Shown here: positions 28,658-52,834 of the stretch, one piece after another
Position numbering within the stretch: the stretch's first letter is position 1
How the letters are laid out: each line of letters begins with the position of its first letter
From: Channa argus
Lineage: Eukaryota
DNA: 64,000 nt
Direction: 5' to 3'
Assembly: GCF_033026475.1 (NCBI RefSeq)
Contig: NC_090211.1
Span: 3,913,726 to 3,977,725, forward strand
Program-made: the position numbers and the translations under genes
Notes under the pieces: model-generated
The model's database searches: none
What the model saw: the letters and a program-made list of their open reading frames with translations, nothing else
Told to the model about the DNA's origin: nothing

Positions 28658-28863
28658 GTCTGTAAGAATCCTGGTCTGTGCCACAGGCCCTCTCTGCTAT
28701 TGGAATCAGACAGTGTGTCTCAAAAGTAATGACATATTATTATGTTTGGATATTTTTGCATATTTTTACATATTTATCAAAAAATGAACAGTAAACAATC
28801 AACTGTTGTTTTTTTTTTTTTTCTTGTTTGGGACCTGGCTGACATCTTTCCATTGTCTTTCAG

Positions 28864-29372: not shown

Positions 29373-29816
29373 GTAACACACACACTCACTGTATGCTTAA
29401 GCCTTTAAAATGGCTTTACTTCCGCATACAAATTTGCAAAGTGTAGACTATACATTTGCATTAATGCTCTCTGCTCATGGGTGTGTGTATGCATCCTCAG
29501 CTCCTATAAAGTGCTAGTAGAAACCAATAATACAGTGTTTTCATGCCCAGTAATGTCCATAACTTTGACTGCCTTGAAAGGTTAAACTAATAACAAAACA
29601 ACACTTCATGACAACTTTATATAATACACTTAAATATGAGAAAGTTCATGTCAGTTTTCATGACAAAATACTTTTTGTCTTTTCTTTAACAAAAGCATTA
29701 ATAATCGGTAAAGTGCTGTAAAACTACTGTTTGTTTGTTGTAAGTAATTACAAAACAATCTTGGTGTCTTAAAGCACTACTTTACGTGTGCATGTGTGTT
29801 TGGTCATGTTATTCAG

Positions 29817-29911
29817 GTGAGGAGTGGCTGGTCAGTAAGGTGGGAGCATACCTTCCAGGTGCACACGAAGAGGTCATTGACATTGTGAACGCTTTCATCC
29901 TAACCGACAAG
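29817..29911 (+). CDS. mvp: mvp exon 5: (G)[31 protein letters not shown]
   Basis: Acceptor ATTCAG ends 29816, donor GTGATT at 29912. Matches the MVP motif GEEWLV..GAYLP. Confidence 0.85.
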
Positions 29912-30405
29912 GTGATTAAATCTATCACTGTTAATCTGTGTGGTCTGATTTGACTTTGAAGTTCTTGTTTTAAATGGTTTCCAGTATATATTGGAAAATT
30001 CAAACTATAATTAGTGCAAGATTTTAAAGCATAGAGACATTGTGTTCTAGAGACAGAGGCAGAGACCAATACAATGGTGAGGAAATGCATCACACAGCAG
30101 AGCTTCCTGAATGGAGAACAGAACAAACTTCAGTGAAGACGAGAACCTTGACAACCATTTAAACGTTTTGACTAAATACCAGCTCAATCAACTCAATTTT
30201 TATAAGCCACAGCTGAGCAGCAATCACGTAGGTTTTTCTGTGTCATAAAGATGGGTGTGATCAGGCTTTAGAAGAAACGCATTTCTTCCTGTACTTGTAA
30301 AAATCATATCATGGTTGTAAAAAAAGCTGCAATGAGCATTGTAAACGGATGTGACGTCCAACCTGCTTGGATTCAGATACTGTATTACAAATTGGTCTTT
30401 TTCAG

Positions 30406-30642
30406 AAAGCACTTCACGTGCGGGCTCTGCAGCCCTTTAAAGATGCCGGCAAGACCGATCGTCGCACGGGGGAGGAGTGGCTCGTCACCATTGCTGACAG
30501 GGAGGCTCACATCCCCTCTGTGTCGGAGGAGGTGGTTGGTGTGGTGAATGTGACCACTCTGAGCAGCAGGCAGTACTGTGTGATTCTGGACCCAGTCGGA
30601 CCTGATGGGAAACCACAGCTGGGCCAGAAGAGGGTTGTAAAG
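30406..30642 (+). CDS. mvp: mvp exon 6: [79 protein letters not shown]
   Basis: Frame of ORF 30367-30726. Acceptor TTTCAG ends 30405, donor GTGAGG at 30643. Confidence 0.9.
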
Positions 30643-30856
30643 GTGAGGAGGGGCATCCATCTCCATTGTCTTTTATGTACTTTTAAAATTCCCCTGAACT
30701 TAAATGAAACTGTGTCTATGGTTTAAATGTTCCCCTTTTGTTTCTTTCCAGTGTCGCCTGCTTACTCCTAAATTCTTTTGATTGTTTAGTTGCGAATTGT
30801 TATGTAATAACACCCATTGTATGATGAAAATGTCCTCCTTTCTTTGTCTTTTACAG

Positions 30857-30982
30857 GGTGAGCGATCATTTTTCCTGCAGCCTGGTGAACACCTTGAAAA
30901 CGGCATTCAGGACGTCTACGTGCTGTCGGAGGAGGAGGGTCTCGTATTGAGAGCTGTGGAGGCGTTCAATGACACTGAAGAG
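30857..30982 (+). CDS. mvp: mvp exon 7: [42 protein letters not shown]
   Basis: Frame of ORF 30782-31006. Acceptor TTACAG ends 30856, donor GTGAGG at 30983. Confidence 0.9.
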
Positions 30983-32443
30983 GTGAGGAGAGTACTCGGT
31001 CTTTAATTTATAATCCTACAGCCGTCCTTAATGTTATGACACCCAGTGGTTACTATGGTATCCTTGGGTGGTTTAGTACTACAGCAAACAGTGGTTGAGC
31101 AGCTTCTTCTGTTTACAGCTAAACAAACTCGAGTTGTTTTTTTTGGTTAGTAATAATATTAAATAACGTCTCCGATTTCATGCTGTCAGTAATTTTCCAC
31201 ACAACAGGTGGAGACATTGAAAGGAGCAGAACAAAAAGGACCAAAACAAGAGTTTTGTAGTTTATTTTTGATGACCTTGCAACAATCTTTCCCGTGACTG
31301 CTTACTAATAAAATTATTTTGCAGTTGTATTAATAGTATTAAAAGTAATTAAAAAAACATTTTCTGCAGCCCTGTTACAGATCTGTTTTATCTGCTTGTC
31401 ATTTTACAATGTGAAACATTTCTTTGGGACAGTTGGAGTAGAAAAGAATTAAGTGGAAGAAAGTGCTGGTATAAGATAGTAATTTGTGAAGCTGGTCTTG
31501 TGTACCTAAAGTTGTGCAACCAGTAGAATATGATGAATCACAAAAGCAAACTATCTTTACACAGAGGTGTGTCATGGTAAAGGACAACCTATATGTAGCC
31601 TGGTATGAAGCAAAATGCCAAAGGTGTGTCTCTGCAGCAGCATTGTGCAGCTCAGGCCACACCTGGGTTTGTTGAATTTTGTTTTGTTTTCTTGTGGTTA
31701 AGTTTGTGTTATAGAAATGTTCTATGTTGTAGTTAGAGGTTATTGCAGCCATTTCTGGATATAGAGAATGACAGGTGTAATAATCAGGGTGTGGTCTGGA
31801 GAAGCTGGGAAAAACAGCTGCTGGTAAACTGCTGAGAGGAGATTGGAGAAAAAAAACTCTTGTGGTGGTGGATATCATGTTATTCCAGAATCTGAAATAT
31901 TGTTAGTTTTGGAAAAAAACTTTATGAGCATTGTAGTGTTGGGCCAGTTACACCATTTATTTCAATGTGTTGAGCTATGGCAAAAAACAATGCACAACCA
32001 TACTGGACTATGACTGGTATTTCCTCATAAGACGGAGAAGGGATTTGGTGAGAATTGTTAGGTTCTCAATTCCTAGTGTCTTTACCAATAAGCAAGTTTC
32101 AAATGTTTTAGAAAGGAGGTTGTTCCGTCCTTCACTGTACCATCTTCCCTTCTAACCTGGCTAATCCATTATACCCCTGCTTTCTTCTTCTTCTCTCCTT
32201 CCTTACCTTTGACTCAAACCCCGTCATGCCCCTCGTATCCTGATGCCATTACATTTCATTATTGTACCACACACCCATTTATATCTTCCACTTTTCTTTC
32301 AACTCTGGAATTCATTTTACTCTTAGCCCCTCTCTGTGACCCCCCCTCCTCCTCTCCTAAACGCTCCTTCACCTCTCCAATGCATTGCCACGTTAACCCT
32401 TATCTCCGTCCTCCTCATCTCTCTGCCCTGTTCTCTCTGCCAG

Positions 32444-32659
32444 CATGAGGAGGAAGAAGAGCAAGAAGAGGAGCAGATGCAGGAGAGGGCCAAGCGCTCT
32501 CGGAGGAGTGGCATCCTCCGTCGCCCTGGAGATCGCTGGATGCTGCGGGGCCCCATCGAGTACGTCCCGCCCGCTGCTGTGGAAGTGATGCTGAGACGAC
32601 AGGCCATCCCACTGGATGAGAACGAGGGCATCTACGTCAGGGACATTAAAACTGGAAAG
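32444..32659 (+). CDS. mvp: mvp exon 8: [72 protein letters not shown] (5' boundary is the best acceptor; upstream in-frame alternatives exist)
   Basis: Frame of ORF 32336-32665. Acceptor CTGCCAG ends 32443 after a ~280-nt polypyrimidine tract, donor GTATGA at 32660. The second half matches MVP (RGPLEYVP...[21 protein letters not shown]). Confidence 0.75.
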
Positions 32660-33683
32660 GTATGAGTTACAGGCCTTTGCCTCCACTCAACATGGGTGGA
32701 TTTAGAACTAAACCTCCCTTTAGAGGTGTTTATTTCTTGATTCAGATCAGACAGTGGTCTTTCCTGTTTGTTGAAACCCTGATATTCATGACCGGTGAGC
32801 AGGAACATCTGTCAGACTTTGAATGACCCCCCCTACTAATCTTTGGTTCAGCCGCAGTGCTCATGTCTGCTTCCATTTGCCTTTTAATGTTTTCTGAAAA
32901 TCTCTCCCCTTCTTATGGTTTCTCTTTAACCTCCTCTACATTGAAAAGCTTGCTATAAACATTGAACCTTTTTTTTTTTAAGTTTTGCATTTACAGTGGT
33001 CTTTCTTAACTATGTGTATATCAGTCCTTCCTTTAAACCTTTATAAATGCTGTTTTTAGTTTGCTCCAACTAGTGAGACATTGTGATGTTGTTCTTATTA
33101 CAAACCCTTAAAGTGTCATCTCCTTAGCTTGTATAAAATTCCAAAATCTCGAAAACAGCGGCTTATGCATCCAGGTGATCTTAGATAATACAGATAAATG
33201 TGGGACAATCTACTTGCATATAATGCATTGTTCTGGACAGAAAGGCTTTAACAAAGAGGACTGATCACTTTGATTATTTGTGTCTCTTTAATGCATAGTG
33301 CTGCTCTCCTCAATGTGCTCTTTAGTTGCCTGACATCATGTATTTTATTAATGGCGAATAAATGATGTTTAAAGACATTGAAGACTAAGACAATGTTAGT
33401 CTAATAGTACAGTTTAAATTAATAAATAACAATTGTAGCCCAGGTCATCTGATTGGCCAAAAAATGCAAATGACTTTGGGTTTTCTGATCAGTTGCAAGT
33501 ATTTGGGTTATTCTGCTAAAAATTCTTGTGGGCAAAGTCTTGTGGGCAGAAAATCTGGAGAGGGCCAGCACAGGCTGCTGAAAGGCTCTCTGTCTGATTC
33601 AGTTAGGAATAAAATTCAAAACAAACTAACTCCATGTCTGTACAATGTTCATTCGAAATTCAATGTGTCCTGCTGTCTCTCAG

Positions 33684-33919
33684 GTACGTGCAGTGATCGG
33701 ACACACATACATGCTGACTCAGGATGAGGAGCTGTGGGAGAAGGAGCTTCCTCCAAATGTCGAGGCTCTTCTTGCTTCTCCTATCGACCCGCTGGCCAAC
33801 CGCTCAGACCGCATTGTGATGGCTCCGAGCAGGCCAAGGGACAAGACTCGTGTTGTCTCCTACAGGGTCCCCCACAATGCTGCCGTCCAGGTCTATGACT
33901 ACAGAGAGAAGAAAGCCAG
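33684..33919 (+). CDS. mvp: mvp exon 9: [78 protein letters not shown](R)
   Basis: Frame of ORF 33645-33962. Acceptor TCTCAG ends 33683, donor GTGGGA at 33920. Confidence 0.9.
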
Positions 33920-34005
33920 GTGGGACCTAGGTCTCTTATACGAATGGAGGAAAGAGAGGTAAAATAAACCCGCTGATGTGATGGTGTTGGTGGCTTTGTC
34001 TGCAG

Positions 34006-34203
34006 GGTGTTATTTGGACCTGAGATGGTGATGCTGGGACCTGATGAGCAGTTCACCATGCTGTCTCTGTCTGGAGACAAACCAAAGAGGGCCAACGTCA
34101 TCAAGGCCATCTGCCTTCTGCTGGGACCAGACTTCTTCACCGATATCATCACCATCGAGACGGCCGACCACGCCCGACTGCAGCTGCAGCTCGCCTACAA
34201 CTG
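34006..34203 (+). CDS. mvp: mvp exon 10: (R)[65 protein letters not shown](W)
   Basis: Frame of ORF 34007-34207. Acceptor CTGCAG ends 34005, donor GTAATC at 34204. Confidence 0.9.
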
Positions 34204-34669
34204 GTAATCACATACAGCACAGTCTGACACAAAATACTGTAGATGCTCAGGTGACAACAAGTTAAAATCTTTTGAGCCAAGGGAAGAGATGACACCTGAA
34301 AAGCGTTATGACTAATGGTCTATCAAGACTCCTGCAATGAGCAGAAACTGGGATAACGAGATAAATTGTCTCTATCATGAGAAAAACTCTTTTTGTTTAT
34401 TTTTTATTTTTTATTTTTTGGCATAAGGTAATGTCTTTAAGGTTACCAGGTTACGATAGACTATTGTACTTATAGCTCTTGTGTGCATGAAAAGACCTTA
34501 AATTAGTTTCAAAAGTAGAGCAGGTTAGTTTACCAACAGACCCAGACAAATCCAGACCTCAACAGTTCACTGTCTGTATGTTTTAGATGTGTTTTCCTTT
34601 TTTTTATTGTAGTAACATTTAACATGTCTGACTGTAATTCCTCCTTGTCTCCTTTTTATTTCCCTTCAG

Positions 34670-34814
34670 GCACTTTGAAATAAAGTCTCCTGAAGACTCT
34701 GCTGATGCAGCTGCTCTGTTTTCAGTTCCTGACTTTGTCGGTGATGCTTGTAAAGCCATCGCCTCCCGAATCAGAGGAGCTGTCGCCTCAGTGCAGTTTG
34801 ATGATTTCCACAAG
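34670..34814 (+). CDS. mvp: mvp exon 11: (W)[48 protein letters not shown]
   Basis: Acceptor CCTTCAG ends 34669, donor GTTTGT at 34815. Frame of ORF 34791-35018 at the 3' end. Confidence 0.9.
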
Positions 34815-34977
34815 GTTTGTAATTCACTGTCTTTATGTTTTCTATCACCATCTTTCAGTTGTGTAATAAAGAAAGGAGAACAGCTTTTAACTTGCATTGC
34901 AACCGTGTCACCTATACCTACTATAAAGAATCACTTAATCCCAAGTTCCCATAAACTAAAATTGACCTTGTCTGCAG

Positions 34978-35189
34978 AACTCGATCCGGATCATCTGCTC
35001 AGCAGTGTTTGGCTTTGATGAGAAGCTGGCAATTCGCCCCAGTCTGCGCTTCCACCAGAACAACTTGGTGATCAGCAGCGTCGACATTCAGTCTGTGGAG
35101 CCCGTCGACCAGAGGACACGAGATGCCCTGATGAAGAGTGTCCAGCTGGCTATTGAGATCACCACCAACTCCCAGGAGGCTGCAGCACG
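34978..35189 (+). CDS. mvp: mvp exon 12: [70 protein letters not shown](R)
   Basis: Frame of ORF 35005-35241. Acceptor CTGCAG ends 34977, donor GTCAGA at 35190. Confidence 0.9.
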
Positions 35190-35413
35190 GTCAGAAAAAC
35201 ACACACACGAACACACAAAAATGTGTAAATGTTTCAGGTAGTGAATGTTTACCAAAAGGAAAAATGGATAGTGGATTTCTTTTTTCTTCTATAAAGGATC
35301 GAGATTTTATAGTTTATATCAGTGATATCTACATTTTAAAGGCACAATTAAACATCATCTGTCATTCAAATAATGACCTGTGTGTGTGTGTGTGTGTGTG
35401 TGCGTGTGTGTAG

Positions 35414-35530
35414 ACACGAGGCAGAGCGTCTGGAGCAGGAGGCTCGGGGAAAGCTGGAGAGACAGAAGATCACTGACCAGGCTGAGGCTGAGAGAGCCAG
35501 GAAGGAGCTGCTGGAGCTGGAGGCGCTGAG
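35414..35530 (+). CDS. mvp: mvp exon 13: (R)[38 protein letters not shown](S) (start of coiled-coil region)
   Basis: Acceptor (GT)n-TAG ends 35413, donor GTGAAC at 35531. Matches MVP ([37 protein letters not shown]). Confidence 0.85.
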
Positions 35531-35759
35531 GTGAACACAGGTTCACTAGGATTACTGGCTAGAACATCATAAGTAGATCTTAAAAGTTTTTTTTTTTTTT
35601 TCTGGTCTGAGGAGATGGAGAAGCATTTAATAGTGTAATAAACCGTAAATTCATTTCATGAGTCAGAAAAGTGGATGTTGTGTTAAGTTACATTGTCAGT
35701 GTTAATCTGCAGTCTATTAACTCAACCTTTTTTGTGTGTGTGTGTGTGTTTTTGTTTAG

Positions 35760-35886
35760 TGCCGCAGTGGAGAGCACAGGAGCTGCGAAAGCTGAAGCTC
35801 AGTCTCGGGCAGAGGCAGCCCGTATTCAGGGAGAAGCTGCAGTCAATGAGGCTAAACTAAAAGCTGAAGCTCAGAGGATCGAGGCT
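35760..35886 (+). CDS. mvp: mvp exon 14: (S)[42 protein letters not shown]
   Basis: Frame of ORF 35671-35931. Acceptor GTTTAG ends 35759, donor GTACGT at 35887. Confidence 0.9.
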
Positions 35887-36227
35887 GTACGTTTCTCATA
35901 CACTTGTTTCTCCATCGGAGTAGGGACATAGAAGTAACAGTTTACCTACTTTGAATAGGGAGCAGCACTAATTTTCATCTGTAGGGAAAAATAAATGTAG
36001 CCAGTAATAACAAAAACATGACAATAGTACATATTTACATATTCTACGCTTTCAACTTAATTTTTCAAATTTTAGTTGAGTTCAGTAAACCATTTCTTTT
36101 TTGACAAATTCCAACAAAAAAAATCCATTAGACTCTACAAAACTGGCTTTGACTACATTGTCTCTTTAGTACAGTTCAGGCCAGGTCTGTTTATGTGTGA
36201 ACCAACACTTTGTGCATTTTCGTGCAG

Positions 36228-36416
36228 GAGGCAGAGCTGGTGCGACTGGCCAAAGCTCGTGAGCAGGAGCTGAACTATAAGAAGGAGATGGACCGTTTGG
36301 AACTGGAGAAGCAGGAGCGTATGGCTCAGATCGAGAGTCAGCGCTTCAGTCAGCTGGTGGAGAGTCTGGGCAGCGACACACTGAAGGAAATCGCCAGAGC
36401 CGGGCCTGAGCTGCAG
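36228..36416 (+). CDS. mvp: mvp exon 15: EAELVRLAKAREQELNYKKEMDRLELEKQERMAQIESQRFSQLVESLGSDTLKEIARAGPELQ
   Basis: Frame of ORF 36210-36515. Acceptor GTGCAG ends 36227, donor GTACTG at 36417. Confidence 0.9.
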
Positions 36417-37190
36417 GTACTGTACTGTACTGTACTGCTGAGAAAACAACACTTCAATAACTTTCGATATAATACGAACAGTTCAGATGTTAGCTCTGAT
36501 ACTTACACCCGGTAGTGAAGCTATAGCTCCACAAATGTTAATCTTAATTTAAACAACAAAATGTAATATGGAGGAGTAACGTCCTCATTACCACCAAGTT
36601 AAACTTGACCTACTGTATTAGTTCATAGTGTCAGCACGTCTTTATAAAGAGATATTTCTAATTAAAAGCCTAATTAAATATCAAAACCTCTTAAATTCAG
36701 GTTGCATAGGTTTGGAGTATTTTTTGTTACTTCACCTCAGTGACTTTTGTAACATCTCGCCCCACTTCAGAGATGTGTTCTGTTAATATGATCTAGTAAC
36801 TCTTCACCCATTCGTGCTCCATACTGTATAACTTAAAACAAACACATCCAGTTAAGCTAACAGACTATAGACTGTCACAGAATAGAGTTAATCAGTTATC
36901 TGGAAAAGTTAGTGACAATCAAAATTAGTGGCCTGTCAAATGAAAGATCAGAAATTAAGTAGTTATGAGTTAAAGTTATTTAAAATAACATTGTCTTAAA
37001 TGTTTAGCTTATCGCTTCTGGTGTACAGAAGCTTTTCCACGTCTTCGCATGTTACAACCACAAACCTAAATGTATTATTGGGATTTTATGCGATAGACCA
37101 ACACAAAGTGGCAACACAAATTTTGAAAGTTGAATATGGAAATTTTCAAGGGGTATTAATATTTTTCTTGTGGTGTGTGTATATATCCAA

Positions 37191-37192
<2 letters not shown>

Positions 37193-37259
<67 letters not shown>
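37193..37259. repeat. (TA)n microsatellite, ~33 units
   Basis: Read directly from the sequence. Confidence 0.95.
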
Positions 37260-37264
<5 letters not shown>

Positions 37265-37916
37265 TAAGAAATTAAAAAAGATTAAGAAGATAAAGGACGA
37301 CTGACCCTACCTGGAGAAACTGAATCTCAATAAAAAAATTACATTGCAGTGGTGTTTGGATAAAACAACAATAAAACCAAGATCTGTGTTTTAGTGGCTC
37401 TGTGCAAGATCTGCTTTATTACAACCCAGCAAACTGCTGGAGTACAATCAAACTCGTAGCGATAATGTGGCTCTCCTTTACTGACCTACTTTGACAGCAG
37501 CACTGACCTTTTGGGGAGAAGCCTGTCAGAATCATGACAGAAAGTCAAAACTTAGCCTCTAACGCAGCAACAGATTGGCAGACGGATCCCCAAGAGATGG
37601 CATCCCTGTCCTCCAGAGTTAACTGTGCGTGACATCAATTTTTTAATTAGTTACAAATCTTGGCATATACTAAATAACAAGAGGAAATTAGAAGTGAAAA
37701 ACATTTACTGTGCAAGAATGCCTATTTATAAGATTTTATCTAAATTAAATGTCCACATTGTGTCAACATGTAATTCCAAACCACCCCGTTGAGTCAAAAA
37801 TGGTTAAATATTAGGAGGCCTTTTAATCTATAGTTAAGTTGCATCTGATTTGGGCTTGTTGTCTGACTTATCACCAATATTCAGATTTAAAACTTAGTCT
37901 GTTTCTCATCCTTCAG

Positions 37917-38042
37917 GTGAAGATGCTCCAGGCTCTGGGTTTGAAGTCCACCCTCATCACAGATGGTTCTTCACCCATCAACCTCTTCACCACAGCCAAC
38001 GGCCTGTTGGGGGCGCTGCCGGGCCAGGGCCAGGGCCAATGA
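37917..38042 (+). CDS. mvp: mvp terminal coding exon: [41 protein letters not shown]
   Basis: Frame of ORF 37839-38042. Acceptor CCTTCAG ends 37916, TGA at 38040-38042. Matches the MVP C-terminus ([32 protein letters not shown]). The 16 exons total 2631 nt, giving 876 aa. Confidence 0.9.
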
Positions 38043-41039
38043 GGGTGAGGACAAAGATTAGAGTGGAAAGTGTCCAAATGTAAACCTCTGCAATATGACA
38101 CACAGGCACAGTCAAATGTCTTTCCAATGGCTGATATTACAGCAAGATGCTGAACTAAACAGTTCAGGGTTTATTGTATCGCTTTCAAATTTTCCTTTCT
38201 GATGTTTTTACACTATACAACTGGCTCTATAAATACACCAGACGGTACCTTTTAAAATATTTCATGCCAACATTTTGCACCAACTGATAAGTTTCTTCAC
38301 AACTTATCTTGCAATCTAGGAGCAAAAGTCTGGAATACTAGATATTTTCATAATCAATAGTTTCATCTTTTGCTTGTGCAAACCCCCAATACCACTATAT
38401 ATATTGTTGTTGTTTGTTTGTTTTCTGGCAGACATGGATATTGGAAAAAAATAATAATTTAATTTATCTATATCTGGAATACAATAAATTATGCTCTAGA
38501 ATTTGATCTGGAACCCAGACTGTCTGGATGAAATTGGGATGAATTATTTAAAGGGGAGACTAGTTTTGAGCTGTAGAAATCCTGTTCTTGGTGACAAACA
38601 GGGTCAGAATTGGCATAAATCTTAAGTGAGATTTATTTACATAGAATTACCAAAACAAAAAGTCTGTGGTTGTATAGCACTCTTTATAAACCTCAGAACT
38701 TGCAACACAAAATTGTCACACACAAACACAAGCATAGCCATAAATATGGATCCTGATAGGTACATAATCTACACATTATCAGACAAATTATATGAAATGA
38801 ATTCACAAACCAAAAATCCTGTGGAACCATATTCGTTCTCAGTAAGCTCTTAAGTCTCAGATGGACATAAACTTTCATCAAAACTTGAATAACTGTTACA
38901 AAACATCTGGTTCTTTGATTAAAAAAAAATAAAAGTCAAACTGAAACATTGAAGAGATTACTACAATAAAACAAAAATTGTGATTTTCTACATTTTCAAC
39001 TTTCTATCTGAGAAATCATATTTTCTTTACTCTCTGTTTAATACCTCATTAATTATTCATAAACCAGCTGCTCTTGCTGGGGAAAAGAATTGGTATAAAC
39101 CACTGAATATGCATTACCTGTAGCTTTAACAACAGATATTTAAGCTCTGAAATAGTTTAGTCTTGTGTCTGACGACCTTATAGTACCTTTGCACATTTTC
39201 ATCAGATGAAAGAAACAGATATTATCTGACACAGGTAGAAATTTGTTGTCAGTCACATACAGCAACATTGACCATGAGAACATGAATGAGACTTTTACTA
39301 TAGGATCCAGACTTTCTTCAAAATTCTTAATCTTTCCATTAAACACCACAACAACGATTTAATGGAACGTGATTTTTACTGACTTACACTCCAATTGGCC
39401 ACTGACAAATTATTGTCTGTTGTTTCTATGTTTACTATTTGTTTTGGGGTTTTTGTTTGTTAGTTTTTTTTTTGCTGACCTCTTCACATTTACATCCCTT
39501 TTAGAGCACAGTGAAACACAGTTTAACAGTCAGCTGTGAAGTGTTCTTTCTCTTCGGTGCCTTTTGCTTGTTGAATCTGACTTTCCGCTCTTCAGAGGAA
39601 ATCAGTTCAGAGGTTTACTTCTAGACAGAAAACAGGCAATGTGCTGCAAACTTAAGAATTGTGCCTACATCCTACAGTTTGTTTAGTCATGTAGTCTGAT
39701 AACCAAAGAATTACGTTTTTGCTTTGCACTAAACCATCCACTATAAATGTGATGAACAGTTAATGCGGATGTTTACATAGTCACTATTAAACATGTCTGT
39801 TTGATTGGTCCTGGAAATAAAAACTTCTTTCTTTGTTTGCCTTGCAAAATGCAGTTGGAAGCCATTAAATTCCTACTATCCACATTGTTGTCTCTGCTGT
39901 GATTTTTAAACATTGTAGCTCCAAACCCTGACAGTCGTCACTCTTTATGTATCAGTTAATAGACTTCATTTACAGTTGTTTACAATTGAACCCATTATTC
40001 CCCATAGCGTGAAACAACACGGTCTGCTGTCTGCACAAGGTAATATATTCACACCTTAAAAATGTATAGTTTTACTAATCTGCAGGTGCTGCCAACATCA
40101 AGTCTCCAAATGAATTTAGTTACTCCGATGGGTAAGGAAGTGTTCCAGGTACAACAGAGAAGACAGGTCTCCTCGCTCGGCACAGTGCTCAGTATGACAA
40201 TGCTGTGTTCAGAGATGCTCCGTGCCAGCAGGCAACTGCTTGGGGCCCCAGGCCCTGACCTTTGCAAGTAGCGCATACTTTTGCATGAGTGTAAACGGGT
40301 CTAATGAAGCAAGGAAAACCATGTGATGAAACTGAATAGAAGTTATCATTCTGGGAGCGAAAAAAAAGTAGGATCGTGGAAAGTGGAGCAGTGGAGATGA
40401 CTATTAAATATAATGAACTAAATAGCATTAGCTAAATGCTGCTAATGCAGTGGTAAAGAGACAGTTGAATAACAGAACTTCTTCTGGTTTCACATTGTTT
40501 CTCTTTTCGTTACTTTGACATTTAACGTGAGCTAACTTGGCTAACAGAAGTCAACTTGTTAGCTTAGCTAGCAGGCTGCTAATAATCAGCTAATTTGAAC
40601 AATATGTTTTCTGGAATAAACTGTCAATTTATGAATGATAAGTTATGAAATTCAGATTCTAAATAACTTGAACAAGTGTACTATAAATCGCTATGGTGTA
40701 TTACTGTAAATTATTGTGCTATGTGCAGTGTGGTGTGTATTTTATTTTATTTCTAATGAGAAGTTTAACCAGCCAATAGATTCCAGTTAATACTTTGAAA
40801 ATGATTTTTTTTCCTGCTTCAGATTTTTTTGTCGCTCATGTAGGTTGTCTGTTAAAATATACAATAAAAGGGCTAGTATAACCAGGAAATTGGGATTTCG
40901 CTTGCCAAAAAAATTATGTCTAACACCTTCTTCAGCTTCAGATCATTTTAATTTCACTTTTGTAGACCTCCCAAAGAGGGAGCTAAGTGCAACCATGACT
41001 TCCTACCTGTCCTGATCTGTCCCTATCTGTTTCACCACA

Positions 41040-43830
41040 GTAAGTCTGTTGAAACTGAGCTGCCTACACGACACTACTCACAGGGACGAGGTAAGATCCC
41101 TGAAACTTCATTAATAGGACATTACATAAACTTTGAACTACGAGAATTTATTCACTGACATTACAAACTTAAGATCATAAAATACTCGAGTGTTTGAACT
41201 TTAAGACAGAACTTTCAGCTGCTTCTGAGGCCCTGTTACTGCTCCGAGAATCAGGTCTTAAACTTTCTGCCTTACACTTTGGAACAACTGAAATCTCCAA
41301 AGGACCCGAGAAGCTAAAGTGGTCCATACAGTGCAAATATATCTCAATTAAAAGTAACTTCAAGTTGAAGTTACTTTAGATGTTTCAACATCAGCTGTTC
41401 ATGAAACCCAAATAATAAAATGTGTCATTTGTTATGTTTGTTATTTATTCTAAATTTAAGAACCAAGCTAAATATGAAAGTTAAACTACATGCAAAAGAT
41501 GGGAACATTAACCCAATGTAATGGTGTAATGTCCTTTAATAATAGTGACTGAAGTACATTTAAGATCTTGTCGACTTTGTCACTTCTTTGTGTAGTAGGT
41601 GTATCTGTGTATATTGTATACATTTGGTTCCTTACCTGACATAGGTTCACTGTGCAATACGGTAAATCATGAATTGTTGTTGTCGTTGTTTTTGCTGCCT
41701 TGTACCTCACTTGTAAGTCTCGACCTGCTAAATGACTAAATGTAAATGTTTTTCATTTGGACATTTGCACTTCAGCCCTTCAAAAGTTTCCTCTGTACCA
41801 TGTGTAAATTTTGAGCTAAATTTTCTACAAAATTATGTTTGGGTGTCTCTTTGTAAAGTTTAATCATTAGTAGTGATTAAGAAGTTGGTGTAAAGATACA
41901 CAAATAATAGGTATGTATGTGTGTTTCCCACACATTCATTATACTTACCTGCCCTGGTGTAATGCGTAATTTCATAAGTAAATAAACCCAAATAGAAATA
42001 TTTAATAGAATCTTAACTTAAAGTTTTTTTTTTTTGTCCTTTCGGCTTATCTCGTGAGTTCAGGGTCACCACAGCGGGTCATTGTCCACATGTTGATTTG
42101 GCACAGTTTTTACGCCACATGCCCTTCCTGACGCAACTGTCCCCAATTTCCACTGGGCTTGGACCAGCACTGCACGGATGGGGAGGGGAATGGGCTGTTA
42201 GGGGTTCAGTGTCTTGCCCAGAGACACTTTGACATATAGCTGGGCCTGGGGATTGAACCACTGACCCTGTGGGCCGTGGACGACTGCTTTACCTACAGCC
42301 GCCCCTTAAATTCTTATAGACAAAAAATTATATAAAATAAATGTAGTTTATGCTTGTTTACTTTTTATTTTACCAGCTTTATAGATTTTCCATGGCTAGA
42401 CTTTTATTGTAAAACATGCTAACTGGACACCTTGTAATTACATTTAATTAACATTCTTCTTTTTTTTTTTTAGAAACATCTGACATCCTGTATTTGTCTT
42501 TCAAAATGTGACTGCGCTGCAGATCGTTTATCTGGACACGGCCTTGCATCTGCAGGCTCTGCTGGACATTGAAGAGGATGTAGGAGACAAAAAGGGTGGC
42601 TGGACATGGGTGGCTATTTGAAGGAGCAGGTATAGAGTTAGAGGACATCAACTGGCAAACTTTGGTATCATATTTTAAGCAGCATGTAAGCTGCAAATGT
42701 GTTATATAGAAATGATGGCATTTCTAAAACGTAATGTCTCTTTGTTGCATGGATATAAATCACTGCTATTAAAAGTTGAACTAATAACAAAACAGCACTT
42801 TATGAGAGCTTTGTATAATACAAAAAAATAAATAAAGTTCATGTTTATGTCATTTTTTGTAACAAAATATTTTTTGTACTTCCTTTTAAAGCAATACAAG
42901 TTCAATGCAAGTGCAAGTGCAAGTGCAACCCCAATTTAAAAGAAAGTTAGGATGATGTGTAAAAGGTATGATTTGCAAGCCTCATCAACCCATATTTTAT
43001 TCACAAGAGAACATAAACAACATATCGGATGTTGAAACTGAGATATTTCCATTTCATGGAAAATATTAGCTCGCTTTGAATTTGATGGCAGCAACACATC
43101 TCAAAAAGTTGGAACAGGGGCAACAGAAAGGCTGGAAAAGTAATTGCTGCAAATAATAAAACAAATGGAGGAGCATGTGATAACTAATTAGGTTAACTGG
43201 CAAAGGTCAGTAACATGACTGGGTATAAAACGAGCATTTCAGAGAGGCAGAAACTCTCAAATATAAAGATGGGCAGGGGTTCACCGATCTGTGACAAACA
43301 GCATCTAAAAACCAACAAAACAACAAAAATTTCAATGACTTTGAAATTACACCATCTACAATATATAATATCATCAAAAGATTTAGAGAATCAGGAATCT
43401 CTGTGTGCAAGGGACGAGTCTGATTTCAGAGCTGTGATTTAATTTATTTAATAAATATTTGTATTTATATTTATTATTATTATGATATTTTTCATTTGTT
43501 TCTATTTAACTTATCCTTCACTGTGCATCTCTTTCTTTAGGTGAAGATGCTTCAGGCTCTGGGTTTGAAGTCCACCCTCATCACAGATAGATCGTCACCC
43601 ATCAAGCTCTTCACCACAGCCAATGGCCTGTTGGGGGCGCTGATGGAACAGGGACAGGGCCAGTGAGGGAGACGAGAGTAGGAGTTCAGAGAGGTGAGTG
43701 TGTAGAGTACAGCTCAAACAATGTTCTTTATTCTCCAACAAGGCCCACAGGTGTGTAGTCCTGTGTTGTGTATTGTAGTCAGTCTTTCTGAAGGCTGATA
43801 CTACAGCAAGATACTGAACTCTTGAACTTT
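41040..43830 (+). pseudogene. Degenerate, internally deleted tandem partial duplicate of mvp. It contains a 5'UTR-exon copy (41081-41090 plus donor), intron-1-like sequence (41560-41860), an exon-3 copy (42505-42629, runs into a stop) with flanking intron-3/4-like sequence (42660-42900), and a last-exon copy (43541-43666) with 3'UTR-like sequence
   Basis: Direct similarity to the upstream mvp gene. The 17-nt match acagggacgagGTAAGA links 41081 to 24231. The 25-nt match ctttgtgtagtaggtgtatctgtgt links 41585 to 25264. The exon-3 copy NVTALQIVYLDTALHLQALLDIEEDVGDKKGGWTWVAI* compares with [41 protein letters not shown]. Intron matches pair 42671-42740 with 29150-29240 and 42762-42900 with 29568-29700. 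The last-exon copy [41 protein letters not shown] keeps the acceptor TTTCTTTAG. The 3'UTR match ctgatactacagcaagatactgaact sits at 43796 versus 38131. Exons 1, 2 and 4-15 are absent. Confidence 0.7.
42930..43440 (+). mobile_element. Tc1-like transposon 5' portion: terminal repeat region plus the transposase N-terminus, inserted in the mvp partial duplicate
   Basis: 43040-43120 carries the Tc1 terminal-region signature (ttgaatttgatggcagcaacacatctcaaaaagttggaacagggg). Codons at 43215-43410 read like the transposase N-terminal helix-turn-helix (..STIYNIIKRFRESGISVCKGR..). The element ends abruptly at ~43440. Confidence 0.6.
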
Positions 43831-44974
43831 TAAAGATGCCTTCACAAACCTAAAAATCCTTTTAAATCTCTGGATGTTTTGAAACAGCCTGAACCACAAA
43901 ATGTTATTCTGCAGCGGGGTATTACTGCTAGCTTGAATAGAAAAAGATCTAATTATACCAAGAAAAGTTCATGTTATTACAACATGCAATTTACTATGAA
44001 TTGGCCATTTGGGTCAGGGTAAGGGTAACATTGGTCGTCTGGTAACAACACTGTCTTAAGTCTTAGTTAGGGGTCAGTGTTAGGGGTCAATGTCTCAGTC
44101 TAAGTCTTTTTTTTAGCTTCCTACTGAGATATAGCTGGGCCTTTTTTTTTTTTTACCATGACTGTGATGTCTGTGGACCATATCATGTTCCTGCAGATGT
44201 GCAAGCCCAGAATACCAGCTCCGCCTCACTTAGGCAACGCACTAAAGTGGCCCAGATCCAGAATCTTCGAATAACTCAGACCTGAGTTTTTCTCTGAAGT
44301 GTGAACGAACCAAATCAGATTTTTTAAATTCACATCCGAGCCAACTTTCAAGCTCATCCCTGTCGATACAACCTCTGTCAGAATCTTCAAATCAGAATTC
44401 GAGCATTTTTATTAAATGTCAGCGTCAGCCTCTCACAATCTGGGGGAAAAAAAGATGAACAACAGAAGTGGGCGAAACAGGAGAAGAGGAATTTTCCAAT
44501 CTGTTGAACATTTACAGAGCTTCTGTTCAAACAGGAAGCAACATCTTGTAACTGAGCAGTTTTTGATGAAATTGTGCAATTAGACCCTAATGATGTTCCT
44601 GTTATTGTAAGCAGTTGGCTCACATTTTAATCAATCTTGTGTAGCAGACTAGGACTGCAACAGTATTCACAACAGAGCTGGACACATATCACAAATGTGA
44701 ACTTAATTCAAATTGATTGGAACCAAAAAGAAATGAAGCATTTGATGGAAGAAACCAGGCAAAGGGAACCAGACTCAAGGTGATCGGCCATCTCTCTCAG
44801 TTGAAATGACTGGGAAGTGCGAATTGGGGAAAAATGGTTGAAGTGTAGATATGTTAGAACTAACTAACAAAAATAGCAAATGTGCAGTTACAGCACTTTG
44901 TAAACGTATCCACATATTTAACATGTCATTCAGCATAATGTGTACGTGTTGGTGATAGCTGACTTTTACTCGGA

Positions 44975-45130
44975 GCAGCACAGTGGTGGAGTGGTTTGTG
45001 CTCCTTCCTTACAGGTAAGGTTCCTGGTTTGATTCCATACGCATGTTCTCCCTGTGTCACAGTTCTGCTCTGTTCGCTGCTTTTTTTCTTCTTTTTTCCC
45101 CTGTTGGGTCATGTTCATTCACAGTCATCT
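44975..45130. repeat. Fragment of a teleost-wide tRNA-headed SINE-like interspersed repeat
   Basis: Motifs gcacagtggtggagtggtt...ggttcctggtttgattcc...catgttctccctgtg are recalled from a very abundant fish repeat family. Confidence 0.5.
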
Positions 45131-45954
45131 CACTTTGACATGCCTGCTCATTCACCGCCCTTCCCAGGCTACACAACATACACGCCCACGATTACCTGCA
45201 GCTCTTTAGCAATCAGCCACAGCATTTAATCCCCCTGCTTGCCTCCCTCCCTCATTATTAACCTAATTCTTCTGTATGTTATGCTAAGCTTTCTCATCAC
45301 ATCCCATGATCTCTGCCTTGTCTGCTTCTGTTTTCTCCCTGTCATTGATCACTGGGTTGTCCCATATTAATCTGACTGTTAAGATCTTATTGCTGTTAAG
45401 ATCTTATGCTTATTCTGTTTGCCCAATTTACACTAACCAACACCCAGTTCCTAATGCTGTTTAATGCTTCCTACCTGTTCATGGTACCAACATGCTAAAA
45501 CTAAAGCTTCTAATCTTTCAAACACATCAGCAGTGGTTATTGTTTCTCATGTCAGCTCTTTGGTCCTTCGTAGTAAAACCTCTGCTTGTGTAGGTTTATG
45601 CCAGGTACTTCTGTTGCCTTCCAGAATCCAAACACATGCATGTTTGTTTAATTGGTTACTCTAAAGCCCTTTTCCAACCACTTTTCTAGGGTCAGAAACC
45701 TTTTTGGGGAACTTAGTCCCTCATTAAAGGAACCAGGGTTTAAATGCATTTCTGGGCAGTCGTTCGGGCTTGTTCCTGCAGCACTGGTCACACTCACAAA
45801 CATGCTCAATGGCTTTGTATTAAGAACAGGAAGAATTCATCCAACTCTGAATTCAAGAAAAAGTACACTGAGTCACACTGAGACACATCTTCACTGGATG
45901 TTTTTTAGTCATAAGTTTCAGTAAATCTCATTGAACCCAACTGTAACCTCCTAT

Positions 45955-46200
45955 CTTGTTCAGGGTCCCAACTGGCAGGGTACCCCCTGGACAGGTCTCT
46001 AGTTTATCTTAGTGGCAGCACAAAGAGACACACACAGACAGACAACCTTTCACACTCTCATTCAATCCTACAGGCACTTTAGAGTCACCACTTAACCTAA
46101 CATGCATGTCTTTGGACTGTGGGAGGAAACCGATGTCCTTGGAGGAAAACCCACACATGCACAAGGAGAACATGTAAAGTCCTCAAAGGTCAATCAAACC
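45955..46200. repeat. Fragment of the same teleost SINE-like repeat family, mixed orientation
   Basis: Motifs ccctggacaggtctc, caggcactttagagtcaccacttaacctaacatgcatgtctttggactgtgggaggaaacc and ggagaacatg. Confidence 0.5.
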
Positions 46201-48239
46201 TGTTTTTTGTGTATTGTACTCTTGATGATTCTTAGCTGTCACATGTCCGTCATCTGTCAGAGTTGTATTCCTGCACGTGTATACAGCAAGATACACTTTA
46301 TTTTTTTAAACTGGTGGATTTAAACATTTTCACAATCTGTACTTTATGTACTGATTACATTTTGTTGGCCAGAGGTCAAAGGTGAAGGTCTCTGTGGCCC
46401 CATGTTTTAATTTTTTTGAGTGCAATATCACAGGAACACCTCAAAGGAATTTTGTGAAATTTAAAAGAAGCAACAGCTTTGACTCAAGGATAAATGCCTT
46501 GGGCTTTCTTGCCCCAAGGTCAAAGGTCAAGGTCAAGGACAGTGACATCTTGTGAGTCTTTTTTGTCGCTCCCATTCTTTGAACAAGTGTTAGAGGGGAA
46601 TTCTTTCAAGTTTGCCAGCCCAGTCCTTGAATTTGGTTGTCAGATGTAAAAGGTCAAGGTCACTCTAAAGAAGACCATTTGTTGTCAATGCTATAGCTCA
46701 GACATGGCTGGAGGGAATTTGTATTATATTTGGCACAAATCTTTACTTTGTGGAGGACGTACACAAGGACAACTGTTGTTATCTGCTGCAAGATGGGGGA
46801 TGAATGGTGGTAGTTACCTTGCCATTTTTTGGAAAATTGTGGCAGTTTTGGACCATGATTGCATGAAATTAACAGTTTTTCATTTTGCTCAACTCCAGAG
46901 ATAAAGTAAACCCAATAGTCAAACACTGCATTGTCCTGTGAGACGCTCAGGTGACAGTCTTTCTTGCTACCTGGCGAAGAAAGTAATCATGTTGAGTAAA
47001 ATCATTTGTTAATTAAATGCAGGAAAAAGGCAATGGAAAGAAGGTATCATCACGGACAAAGAGGTTGAATCATCTGACTCCTCGCTTCCAGATGGGCAAC
47101 CGGGTCATGTGTAAAGTCTTGAGCAACTGCATAATTTTTCGAGATAAACTAAAGGCAAACGGGATGTGATAGTGATGTGATAAGAAACCCACTACTACTA
47201 CTACTGACAGTGACGTAGATTGGAAGAGAGAATGGGATTGGAATATTGTATTGAGTCATAAAGGTTGGTGGTGGTCATCGTGTTCTAAAAACTTCTTGCC
47301 GTTCTCTTTTCAGATTGAGGATATGGAAATTGCACAACTATTTAATGTCACTGTAAAATAGGAAAACACCATGATAAAATTGATTAATGTGAATTCTCCA
47401 GTGGTGAAAAGATATTTCTTTTTGAAGAAACTGTCCTATGCACTTCAGGGTTGTTTGCACAATGGGATTTGTGGGGGATTACCTGCACCGTGGACATTAT
47501 GGACAGAATCAGTGATAGTTATCTGTACGTGCAATGGTACACAGCATAAATGAACAGTTAAGAGTTAATTCAGACGGTTTAAGTTTCAATGTAAACAGAT
47601 GGGCTACAAAAAAAGCTCAAGTTGATGCTGATATTGCTACTTTCTGTTTTCATGGCAACACAAACCTTTCTGTTTACACAAGTAAACCCTTTTCACATTT
47701 AATTATTTCTCTACCTAATCATTTCTGCAAGATATGGAGGTGAAGTTCTCTTGAAATCTTATAGCAGTTATCAAGTCAACACTATCTGAGATGAAAGTGC
47801 CATCATGTTCTAGGTTTAGTACCTATTGTTTGCTTAGTAATACCTGTCTTTTTTTTTCATCAAGTGAAAAATGTTAAGAGAAGGAAATAGTTAAATAGGC
47901 TACAGCTAGGGAAACCTTTGTAATGCTGACTTGGCCTGTTAACTTTAGTATAATTGTTGTCATTCATGTAGATGTGCGAGTGTTTTGCTTTACTAAATGT
48001 TCTGTGTTCAGTTCTCAGACAACATTGCACATGCCAATAGATGCAGACTGAATGTCCGGGAATGTTGTTGGTTGCTTGCTCTGTCTCAGCTTGTGACCTT
48101 TCAGACATTATATAGCCTGTACAGATATTCATACAAAAATTCAAAAGGCTACTGTACATTAGCTGCAGCAACACTGCTGGTGCAGGCATTAATCGCACTG
48201 AGAGCCATCACAAGCGCTCAGGCAGTTTGTTGAATGTGC

Positions 48240-49075
48240 TTTCAAACAAAACAGAATAAGGAAACCCACACTGGTGGAGCAGAAACGGAGTGGCACAGAA
48301 AAGGGCTATTTGTTGGCTAATGCCACAAAGTGCGTAAAAATAGCTTCTTTAAGCTGCAACCTGCAGACATGGGCTCAGGAATACTTCCAGAAAACATTGT
48401 GGGTGAACACAATCCACCGTGCCATTTGCCGTTGCCGGCTAAAACTCTATAGGTCAAAAAAGAAGCCATATCTAAACTGGATCCAGGAGCGCAGGCGTTT
48501 TCGCTCATTTAAAATGGACTGCGGCAAAGTGGAAAACTGTTCTGTGTTCAGACGAACCAAAATTTGAAGTTCTTTTTGGAAACCATGTCATCCGGAATAA
48601 AGAGGACAAGGACAACCCAAGTTGTTACCAGCGCTCAGTTCAGAAGCCTGCATCTCTGATGGTATGGGGTTGCATGAGTGCGTGTGGCATGGGCAGCCTC
48701 CACATCTGGAAAGGCTCCATCAATGCTGAAAGGTACATCCAAGTAACATATGCTCCCATTCAAATGTCGTCTCTCTCAGGGAAGACCTTTCCAATATGAC
48801 AATGCCAGACCACATACTGCATCAATTACAACATCATGGCTGCGTAGAAGAAGGATGCGGGTGTTGAAATGTCCAGCCTGCAGTCCAGATCTTTCACCCA
48901 TAGAAAACATTTGGCGCATTATAAAGCGGAAGATGCAACAAACGAGACTTAAGAGAGTTGAGCAATTAGACAAGAATGGGACAACATTCCTATTCCTAAA
49001 CTTGTCTCCTCAGTCCCCAGACGTTTGCAGACTGTTATAAAAAGAAGAGCTGATGCCACACAGTGGTAAACATGG
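48240..49075 (+). mobile_element. Tc1-like transposase pseudogene, the 3' two-thirds, with frameshifts, plus the right end
   Basis: ORFs 48274-48567 and 48750-49040 span three frames. They read ..[44 protein letters not shown].., ..[71 protein letters not shown].. and ..[57 protein letters not shown].. This is the DDE transposase of Tc1. The 3' end ...cagtggtaaacatggccttgtcccaactttttt matches Tc1 termini. Confidence 0.8.
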
Positions 49076-49659
49076 CCTTGTCCCAACTTTTTTCCCCTTA
49101 TTTTTCCCTTAAAATGATACATGTTCTCAGTTTAAACATTTGATATGTTTGATAAGTTTTAAACCCTGTGTGTAGTTCTACAGTCCCGCCAGTGTGACTG
49201 TTATCACAGAGGACATCAGGACAGAATGGTCTGCAGCCAAGCAGATGCAGATCATGCAGAAGAGGTGGCTCCTCTTTAATTCAATCCATCGATTTGATAA
49301 TTCAGTCAGGACAAGCTAATGAAATCCCTCAAGGTTGACTGTAATTCTCTCAAGCTGTCTCCTCATATTTTTCTTTTTATCATCTTCTATAATCTGCACA
49401 TCAGTCTTGTATGTCCCCCACAGACGCCTGCTGCAGTTTGACCTCTGTGTTTATGGGGAGATTGTATAACACACCATCAGTACAGTGACTGTTAACTATA
49501 CCTAAGAGTTTCTGTCTGAGGAGCAGATCTGTTCTTTAATTAAGAGCCTGTGAATTAGTGATTGTTCTAAAATCCAACTATTATTCAGTTAGTCAACTGA
49601 CAGGTCATTGACAGGCCACTATTTGAAGCTAAAAACTCTGGGGTTTTTATGGGTAAATT

Positions 49660-51039: not shown

Positions 51040-51657
51040 CTGGTTCTTTGTATGAATGGATTCATAACTTTAGTTGTTTTGCTGATCAGTTTTTCAGTTT
51101 TACTTTCTCTTCTTACACCTTTTTCCTCATGTCTGCTTCTTTTTTCTCTTCTCCCCCATCCTCATATTCCTTCTTCTGTTCTTAATTTTTTTCTACTTCC
51201 CAGTTTTACTCCTTTTCTTTTCTCTCCTAACAGTTTATAAAGTGCTTGCAATCTTCCTTTCATGTTCTGTCTCCTACTTCTTTTCATTTTCATCGTTTTT
51301 TTCCCTAATCCTCCCCAGCAGATGGCTACTCTTCTTCCTTACTGTCCTTCTCACCCTTTTTTTTCTTGTCCTCTACAGGCTCCTCCTCCTCATCTGGCAG
51401 CTTTCATCCATTTTTTATCCCTGCTTCTCCACTTCTTCCTACACTTTCTCCCCGGACTGATGCTCACCCACAGATTGCTACTCTTCATAACTATTTCCTC
51501 TCTCGTCCACACACAGCTTTATCTCCCCTCTTTCTTCCTTGTTGTGTTGTTGTTGTGGTTATAGCTCAGTCTGTCTCTTCACTGTGTTCTCTCTCACACT
51601 TGATTGATAATAAACTGTAATAGTAACAGAGGGAATTGCCATACTAACACCCCAGCC

Positions 51658-51741
<84 letters not shown>

Positions 51742-52460
51742 CACACATACCAGCAAGGATATCCTCACAGTGAGGTAATTTGAATTGAATCTTGATTCTA
51801 TGCTGTAGTGAGGATTTTGGGCAGATGGACGGTGTATGTGGGACTGAGTCCAAAAACACTACAGTGTATGTACAGTAATCTAGGAGCATGTCGGTGAGAC
51901 GATGGATTTCAATATCTATTATTTCGTTTAAAAAAATTCTGTGTAATGTGAATGTTTGACGGTGCAGAATTGATCTCTTCACTGTTTACTGACTCGTTTA
52001 GCTCCTGTATCTTTTCTTTTATTGTTGTCTTCACGTCCTCCACCTCCCCTGCTGCTCCACCTCCCCACTCTCAGCTGCATTATGACACACCGCCTCCCTC
52101 CTCTCCACCCTCCATCCTTCTTCATCTCTGTTTTTTCTCTATGTGTCTGGTTGCTTTTACACCTTTTTGTTGGTTCAGTTCTTCCTCCTCTGTCTCTTCC
52201 TTCCTGCAGCCTCCCACACCCAGAAACACCCAGAGAAACGTCCATTTATCTGAATTAAATATTGACTACCCAGCCACGATCACACACTTTTTCCTTTTTT
52301 TCGGTTTTCGTTCTGTTACAACTCCCTCATCCGCATCCTTTCTGCAGGCGTCTCCTTCTTTCCTCTGGTTCTCCCCCGCCTTTATTTTCAGACCCCCTCC
52401 CCTGTCTCTTGATTTTTCCTCATGTAGCCTCGGTGGTGGAGTCTCCTAATAATTTATAAG
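51040..52460. repeat. ~1.4-kb strongly strand-asymmetric polypyrimidine (CT-rich) low-complexity tract on the + strand, interrupted by (CA)n
   Basis: Long runs such as ttttcctcatgtctgcttcttttttctcttctcccccatcctcatattccttcttctgttc and cctccacctcccctgctgctccacctccccactc. The + strand here has almost no purine runs. Confidence 0.8.
51663..51746. repeat. (CA)n microsatellite, ~40 units with two interruptions
   Basis: Read directly from the sequence. Confidence 0.95.
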
Positions 52461-52834
52461 AATCTAAAATTCAAATGAAGCGCACACACACACACACACA
52501 CACACACATATTTTATTAACAGAGAGGAAACTGGCCTCTCTCCTCTCTATCCTTGTTTCTCTCTGCCATATCTCTGTATCCCTGGCTTCCTCTCGCTCCT
52601 TTTCCAATGGTTGCTGTGACAATGCACTCTGTCGTCCTAGAAACAGGGTGTAAAAAGTAAAGTCCACTCCCTCGTTATGTCTCTCAAACCATCTTTCTCT
52701 CCTAATTTCTTCATGCCAATTTGAAATCGAGCGGCCCTACAAAATAAAAGCATGTGTGTGGGCATGTGGCATGGGGTTATTTAACATAAAGGCATTCCCT
52801 TCGTTTTGTTTTAGATGTTATCCTTAAAGCAAAG

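Follow-up and report, generated by a model that had tools for sequence, protein, structure and literature searches.

A decayed partial copy downstream of the major vault protein gene in the snakehead Channa argus, probably an inert non-processed pseudogene

The major vault protein gene (mvp) of the snakehead Channa argus is followed, on the same strand, by a degraded partial copy of itself, which we refer to as psi-mvp. It lies at 41055-43844 of the window analysed here, a stretch of 64,000 nucleotides from contig NC_090211.1 (assembly GCF_033026475.1, positions 3,913,726 to 3,977,725), about 3 kb 3′ of mvp, and its pieces keep the order of the gene. psi-mvp is an ordinary decayed pseudogene. 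Some 2.8 kb is left of a gene spanning 14 kb or longer, and tblastn finds 13 of the 17 exons (exons 2-3 and 6-16) to be gone, with parent introns 1, 3, 4, 5 and 16 still represented. We consider it probable that psi-mvp is an inert, non-processed pseudogene remnant, and most likely it does nothing, a reading that rests on its sequence and on comparison with other fish.

The parent gene is well defined in the window. The best match of the concatenated open reading frames (ORFs) at 25.8-38.0 kb is Channa argus MVP isoform X2 (P0121, 876 aa), and the exons are 100% identical to this protein, many of them exact in tblastn. A tblastn search of P0121 on the window places 16 coding exons at 25804-38021. 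Counting a non-coding exon 1 that ends at 24263, the gene comprises 17 exons, and its stop codon is at 38040-38042.

Using blastn of 40500-44500 against the rest of the window, we found eight plus-strand high-scoring segment pairs (HSPs), all to mvp, strictly collinear with it and with E-values down to 7e-50. The initial annotation had described a collinear mvp-derived stretch about 3 kb downstream of mvp, and the pairwise alignment confirms this, since the similarity runs through exons and introns in order and does not consist of chance or low-complexity matches. Outside mvp itself, tblastn of P0121 matches 42502-42631 and 43541-43663. For comparison we used the mvp loci, with 10 kb downstream, of Anabas testudineus (L001), Betta splendens (L006), Lates japonicus (L003), Seriola dumerili (L004) and Micropterus salmoides (L005). 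The pieces of psi-mvp match mvp exons of these five species and match nothing besides mvp in the window or in the five loci. Some control windows do match the gene region when the low-complexity filter is off, owing to microsatellites, and this is what could be said for reading the matches as chance or low-complexity similarity, as a genome-wide repeat family or as an assembly artefact. We give that reading practically no credence. E-values of 1e-35 to 1e-50 fall on unique exon sequence, on one strand and in strict collinearity, the reversed-sequence control gives 0 HSPs, and the lack of further copies in the window and the fetched loci, together with the matches to mvp exons of the other species, rules out chance or a repeat family within the sequence searched. 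Over the 10 kb 3′ of mvp, a second, independent C. argus assembly (L002, GCA_004786185.1) agrees at 99.89% identity; because it carries the same sequence, psi-mvp is not an assembly artefact.

All pieces of psi-mvp are on the plus strand. The most upstream one (41055-41102) comprises the 3′ end of non-coding exon 1 and the beginning of intron 1, with the GT donor at 41091-41092. Its core, 41080-41102, matches parent 24241-24263 at 21 of 23 positions by both Smith-Waterman and blastn. We take this 23-nt match as real because a multi-species alignment shows that it carries the percomorph-conserved donor motif GAGCTGCC...CTCACAGGGACGAG|GTAAGA, which Anabas, Lates, Seriola and Micropterus also have at their exon 1 donor. 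Intron 1 sequence follows at 41455-41854 (parent 25141-25559, 59% identity, E=2e-10), including a core at 41578-41610 that is 94% identical and belongs to a conserved element, and again at 41968-42015, from the 3′ part of the intron (parent 25692-25739, 75%). The exon-1 end with its donor and the intron-1-like sequence are thus present as the initial annotation had them.

After 42015 the copy lacks exon 2 with its ATG, intron 2, exon 3 and the greater part of intron 3, and the match resumes at parent 28811. From there, 42454-42646 aligns to 28811-29003 (77-78%, E=3e-35) and comprises the tail of intron 3 (42454-42504), a copy of exon 4 (42505-42629; aa 117-159 of P0121 by tblastn) and the head of intron 4. 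The intron 3 acceptor has changed from AG to AA at 42503-42504, as seen by blastn and in a seven-sequence alignment. The exon 4 copy has a +1 insertion that shifts the frame into a TGA at 42619-42621, and it retains its GT donor. Acceptor loss, frameshift and stop together mean that this remnant cannot be spliced or translated. The frameshift into a stop had been noted before, for what was called an exon-3 copy; the exon is in fact the fourth of the gene and the third coding one.

The next piece, 42630-42761, holds part of intron 4 and the first 11 nt of exon 5 (42751-42761), whose acceptor is mutated from AG to AT. Here 42650-42761 aligns to parent 29139-29251 (blastn E=7e-12; 76.4% by Smith-Waterman). 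It is joined directly to an internal piece of intron 5 at 42762-42914, for which blastn pairs 42762-42896 with 29568-29700 (E=2e-19) and Smith-Waterman pairs 42755-42914 with 29559-29716 (79.5%). Upstream of 42762 a deletion has removed most of exon 5 together with the initial ~190 nt of intron 5, and the junction, 29251|29568, falls inside exon 5 and intron 5 and not at splice junctions. What had been labelled intron-3/4-like sequence is indeed intron-derived, and consists of the intron 3 tail plus parts of introns 4 and 5.

The last block starts with the tail of intron 16 (43504-43540), in which an alignment with the parent and five orthologs shows the polypyrimidine tract and AG acceptor to be intact. 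It continues into a copy of the last exon (43541-43666) with an open frame and its TGA, 90% identical over 41 aa in tblastn and differing from the parent at 12 of 126 bases; the blastn HSP across both, 43528-43675 to 37904-38051, has 88.5% identity and an E-value of 7e-50. Acceptor and stop are intact, as first reported, and the amino acid substitutions number four (G17R, N22K, P35M and G36E, from 5 nonsynonymous base changes) and not five. Sequence resembling the 3′ untranslated region (3′UTR) occupies 43667-43844. Within it, 43777-43844 aligns to 38110-38187 at 82% (Smith-Waterman) and 43782-43820 to 38118-38156 at 87% (blastn). The homology stops near parent 38187, upstream of the first AATAAA of the parent (38483).

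The conserved element represented in the intron 1 piece is located in mvp at 25240-25403. It reads ...GACTTTGT...CTTTGTGTAGTAGGTGTGTC..TGTGTGCATACC..., is conserved in all six percomorph species compared, with a core that is kept in Anabas, Betta, Lates, Seriola and Micropterus, and is partly kept in psi-mvp. Within it, GGTGTATC is specific to Channa and common to parent and copy. The element may have a regulatory role, or it may represent an alternative first exon or donor.

The features of psi-mvp are those of a non-processed pseudogene: exon similarity, intron sequence kept together with intron boundaries (the donors of exons 1 and 4 and the acceptor of the last exon), disabling lesions, and a neutral pattern of change, the last based on small counts. 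An RNA-mediated copy is excluded by the retained introns and by deletion junctions that do not coincide with splice junctions. We accordingly rejected a processed retrocopy, which resembles psi-mvp in being a partial, disabled gene copy and differs from it in having no introns, a terminal poly(A) tail and exon-exon junctions; psi-mvp has intron sequence throughout and no poly(A) tract after the 3′UTR-like part. The initial annotation had reached the same view from the retained intron material, and the pieces of introns 1, 3, 4, 5 and 16 bear it out.

Two transposable elements have been inserted into psi-mvp. The sequence and flanks of 42030-42305 (276 nt, minus strand) show a GGTTCAATCCCC-type head, a poly(A) tail that appears as poly-T on the plus strand, and a CTTAAA target-site duplication, from which we assign it as a probable short interspersed element (SINE); neither ARAGORN nor Rfam calls a tRNA in it. 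The initial annotation did not mention this element. A second, partial copy of this SINE-like retroposon is at 1889-1943 of the window. The place of exons 6-16 is occupied by a Tc1-like fragment at 42923-43425 (plus strand), for which the initial annotation had given a Tc1 insertion at 42930-43440. The transposon is there, but only as a 5′ fragment made up of the terminal region, the 5′UTR and transposase residues 1-76, which tblastn of the transposase P0250 places at 43215-43417. The 1107 homologs at E<=1e-30 are named Tc1-like or TCB1 transposase and have PF01498 and PF13358, and Pfam gives only sub-threshold helix-turn-helix matches for the N-terminal peptide. A second remnant of the same family, with frameshifts and stops, covers residues 104-358 at 48358-49190 (plus strand, tblastn), possibly from ~48120, some 4.8 kb 3′ of the first. 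It is secure only from residue 104, with weak and conflicting alignments for residues 56-103. The upstream fragment has no 3′ end of its own; its 5′ region inversely repeats the 3′ end of the downstream fragment (34 nt at 79%, 20 nt at 85%), and the two share no nucleotide overlap. A Tc1-like remnant of a different family, 26-49% identical to P0250, is found at 2148-2419 on the minus strand.

Comparison with the other fish points to an origin of psi-mvp in the Channa lineage. Betta, Lates, Seriola and Micropterus have no mvp-derived sequence within 10 kb 3′ of mvp, whereas Anabas has a patchwork copy of its own; a look at related genomes, as first proposed, thus finds the copy absent from four species and an additional one in the fifth. 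The Anabas remnant is at 22675-23267 of that locus, 2.4-3.0 kb after the mvp stop, and is made up of five stretches, each 30-90 nt long, that fit within 600 nt. They come from intron 8, exon 9, intron 9 together with the start of exon 10, the tail of intron 16 and the last exon, which is truncated. The Anabas remnant resembles psi-mvp in parent gene, strand, interval and collinear patchwork structure, including part of the last exon. It differs in the parts that are kept, in its similarity to the parent (about 88-91% to Anabas mvp, or ~9% divergence, against about 76-80% in Channa) and in its disrupted last exon, which has premature stops and no acceptor. Both remnants are flanked by conserved block A (Channa 39508-39916; Anabas +432) and conserved block B (Channa 49196-49407; Anabas +3644), at which the downstream Tc1-like fragment ends. 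A literature search for mvp pseudogenes or duplications in teleosts returned nothing relevant.

Several derived states tie psi-mvp to its own parent. Three such states, absent in the five other species, are common to Channa mvp and its copy: an AAT (Asn) codon where exon 4 starts, a TTG in the last exon, and GGTGTATC within the element of intron 1. The intron 5 piece aligns only within Channa, the corresponding parent segment being unmatched in the other fish loci, and the Anabas copy in turn has an Anabas-specific GGG. The two remnants share no deletion junction. One state is common to both, an AGA (Arg) codon in place of the GGN (Gly) of all functional genes, which reflects a G>A change at an ancestral CpG.

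The copy of the last exon is the one part of psi-mvp that looks intact, so we asked how its base differences arose by polarising them with the five orthologs. On the copy branch we count 5 nonsynonymous and 3 synonymous changes (pN/pS 0.61, with small counts), and the nonsynonymous share fits the neutral expectation (binomial p=1, run as 5/7, with 5/8 giving the same answer). All 4 changes on the parent branch are synonymous, against 0 nonsynonymous ones (binomial p=0.001, run as 0/5). In exon 4, 13 changes polarise to the copy branch and 8 to that of the parent, with 1 indel. The copy-branch rates of the last exon (8/126) and exon 4 (14/124) do not differ significantly (Fisher p=0.19), and we therefore rejected constraint on the last-exon copy. 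Recent gene conversion of the last exon was also rejected, as synonymous changes on the parent branch amount to ~0.12 per site, a level similar to the divergence of the introns. That a frame of 41 codons has survived ~8 substitutions is unremarkable; the copy is still intact only because it is short.

As a potential terminal exon, the copy has the acceptor tctctttctttag|GTGAAG in the same phase as the parent exon, and it retains the TGA. It has no nearby poly(A) signal, no annotated isoform and no conservation in relatives. A scan for AATAAA and ATTAAA finds none within 745 nt of the copy's stop, the first being at 44411; the AATAAA of the parent, 441 nt after its stop, is past the end of detectable homology. 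None of the RefSeq isoforms X1-X3 uses the copy, all three ending in the canonical exon, no gene is called across psi-mvp in the GenBank annotation of the second assembly, and Rfam and ARAGORN scans of 38000-46500 found nothing. Of the outcomes that had been listed for this exon, namely transcription, an extra 3′ end or alternative 3′ exon for mvp, and inertness, the last is favoured by the neutral changes and the missing poly(A) signal, isoform and conservation.

The history that we favour would begin with a DNA-level, local (tandem) duplication of mvp in the snakehead lineage, which would have followed the split of snakeheads from labyrinth fishes. The second copy would have been placed in the spacer between the two conserved non-coding blocks 3′ of mvp. 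Being unneeded, it would have lost the exon with the start codon and most others through several genomic deletions, acquired the SINE and the Tc1-like element, and drifted in its non-coding parts to about 76-80% identity. Such a level of identity points to an old event, which on a rough and uncalibrated estimate may date back tens of millions of years. A segmental tandem duplication followed by large deletions, as originally suggested, agrees with a non-processed, reduced and disabled tandem copy, a full-length stage and a single event for all pieces being presumptive parts of this picture.

Several observations weigh against this simple history. One of them concerns function: in total, parent and copy differ less in the last exon, at 12/126, than they do in exon 4, at 24/124 (Fisher p=0.03), which could reflect past constraint, gene conversion or a younger block. 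With the intact acceptor, polypyrimidine tract, phase and stop, and with the exon-1 donor motif and the core of the intron-1 element retained, one might suppose that the last exon serves as an alternative 3′ terminal exon, spliced from exon 16 to 43541 to yield a variant MVP C-terminus, or that the remnant gives rise to a non-coding RNA whose transcription starts from the exon-1 and intron-1 elements. Such transcription or use would be very unlikely given the 5 nonsynonymous against 3 synonymous changes, the radical G>R, P>M and G>E replacements in a peptide that is invariant, up to its variable tail, across seven functional genes, the 745 nt free of poly(A) signals, the RefSeq isoforms that ignore the exon, the Anabas counterpart with stops and no acceptor, and the absence of the copy from Betta and three outgroups. 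Another observation concerns origin, since the Anabas remnant sits in the same intergenic interval as psi-mvp. Both could descend from one older duplication in the ancestor of Anabantiformes, with gene conversion, differing deletions and loss in Betta. We regard this as unlikely, although it is the rival that deserves the most weight: both remnants are between the orthologous blocks A and B, both have the AGA (Arg) codon, and the Channa copy is roughly as far from Anabas mvp as from Channa mvp when exon 4 and the last exon are compared. The G>A change behind the shared codon is at an ancestral CpG, however, and is prone to recurrence. A Channa-lineage duplication with an independent Anabas event is favoured because each copy has derived states found in the gene of its own species, namely GGG in the Anabas copy and TTG plus AAT in the Channa copy, the Anabas copy is younger (~91% identical to its parent against about 76-80%), the intron 5 piece of psi-mvp aligns to Channa only, no deletion junction is shared, and a copy is lacking in Betta, a closer relative of Anabas than Channa is. 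On this comparison of sequences, the Anabas remnant most likely arose independently.

The remaining difficulty for duplication followed by deletion is the position of the last-exon block, which is flanked by two Tc1 fragments that are possibly halves of one element, an arrangement that a simple duplication with deletions does not predict. If the fragments are one element, 43426-48256, starting with the last-exon copy, entered a pre-existing Tc1, and the history is more complex; it is also possible that they are two independently truncated elements. We considered a later tandem duplication from intron 16 to the middle of the Tc1 element, which predicts that 43845-48255 resembles 38188-43425, and rejected it since no such similarity was found. 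psi-mvp may instead have been born fragmented, with a repair or replication process (template switching, or filler DNA at a double-strand break, possibly associated with Tc1) copying short, ordered stretches of mvp. For this one can cite that both the Channa and the Anabas remnants are patchworks of short collinear pieces, that the last-exon block begins within 80-100 nt of the Tc1 break with a fragment of the same family 4.8 kb downstream, and that the events of both lineages fall in the same ~1-kb ancestral interval. We nevertheless hold it to be improbable. Channa has long pieces, of 100-400 nt, among them ~400 nt of collinear intron 1 with weak similarity, which is what a longer copy should leave after decay. 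The Anabas block 22793-23047 keeps the parental spacing, the complementarity of the Tc1 fragments is not firm, with residues 77-103 ambiguous, and a deletion bias alone can yield remnants of this kind. A little less probable still is the extension that the spacer 3′ of mvp would be a recurrent site of template switching or patchwork repair, hit independently in snakehead and climbing perch, with a broken Tc1 maybe taking part in the Channa event.

Non-processed pseudogenes next to their parent gene are well known, the pseudogenes of the globin clusters being the classical case. psi-mvp shares with them the tandem, DNA-level copy, the remnants of introns and splice sites, the lesions, the neutral pattern and the insertions of transposable elements. 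It is far more reduced than typical pseudogenes of the globin type and is a relic rather than a recognisable gene copy. Tandem exon duplication can also create alternative terminal exons, and the last exon of psi-mvp is like these in being downstream, on the same strand and intact in acceptor, phase and stop. It is unlike them in the lack of any evidence of use, of a nearby poly(A) signal, of purifying selection or of conservation in relatives. Only two aspects of psi-mvp are mildly unusual: Anabas has a parallel remnant in the same interval, and a broken Tc1 may have been involved.

Other features of the locus were seen along the way. MVP isoform X1 (915 aa) uses an upstream acceptor that extends exon 9 (32336-32440) and adds 39 residues, which are missing from X2 and from MVP of other species; the extension looks like a predicted variant of doubtful significance. 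Block A is 1.5-1.9 kb 3′ of the mvp stop in Channa and 0.4-1.7 kb downstream in Anabas, Betta, Lates, Seriola and Micropterus, with 68-81% identity, and could be an extended 3′UTR or a regulatory element. Block B and the regions 51526-52751, 54517-55111 and 56062-56689 are strongly conserved (87% to Anabas and Betta, 81% to Lates) and are probably exons or regulatory parts of the next gene. Upstream, the neighbour of mvp in related species is a caskin-like gene. Downstream, a CD225/dispanin-type ORF resembling PRRT2 is encoded on the minus strand at 59942-61224, and Betta has a CD225 gene at the equivalent place; this ORF fits what we take to be conserved synteny with the human PRRT2-PAGR1-MVP region. 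Among other fish, Syngnathus acus (L007, 2720-16693) has two tandem models named major vault protein-like (277 and 437 aa) that contain Vault repeats only and lie beside an ankyrin-repeat gene. They could be truncated mvp paralogs and form a separate pair at another locus. An apparent mvp duplication in Champsocephalus esox (L008, 10001-23130) was set aside, as it looks like an annotation split of one gene into two models (368 and 518 aa).

psi-mvp is of little biological importance and is useful mainly for annotation: it ought to be masked or given a pseudogene label, which keeps its intact-looking last exon out of mvp models. As a dated marker it is also of minor use in snakehead phylogeny. 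Additionally, the two apparently independent mvp remnants in one anabantiform interval could inform how local duplicates originate and decay in compact fish genomes.

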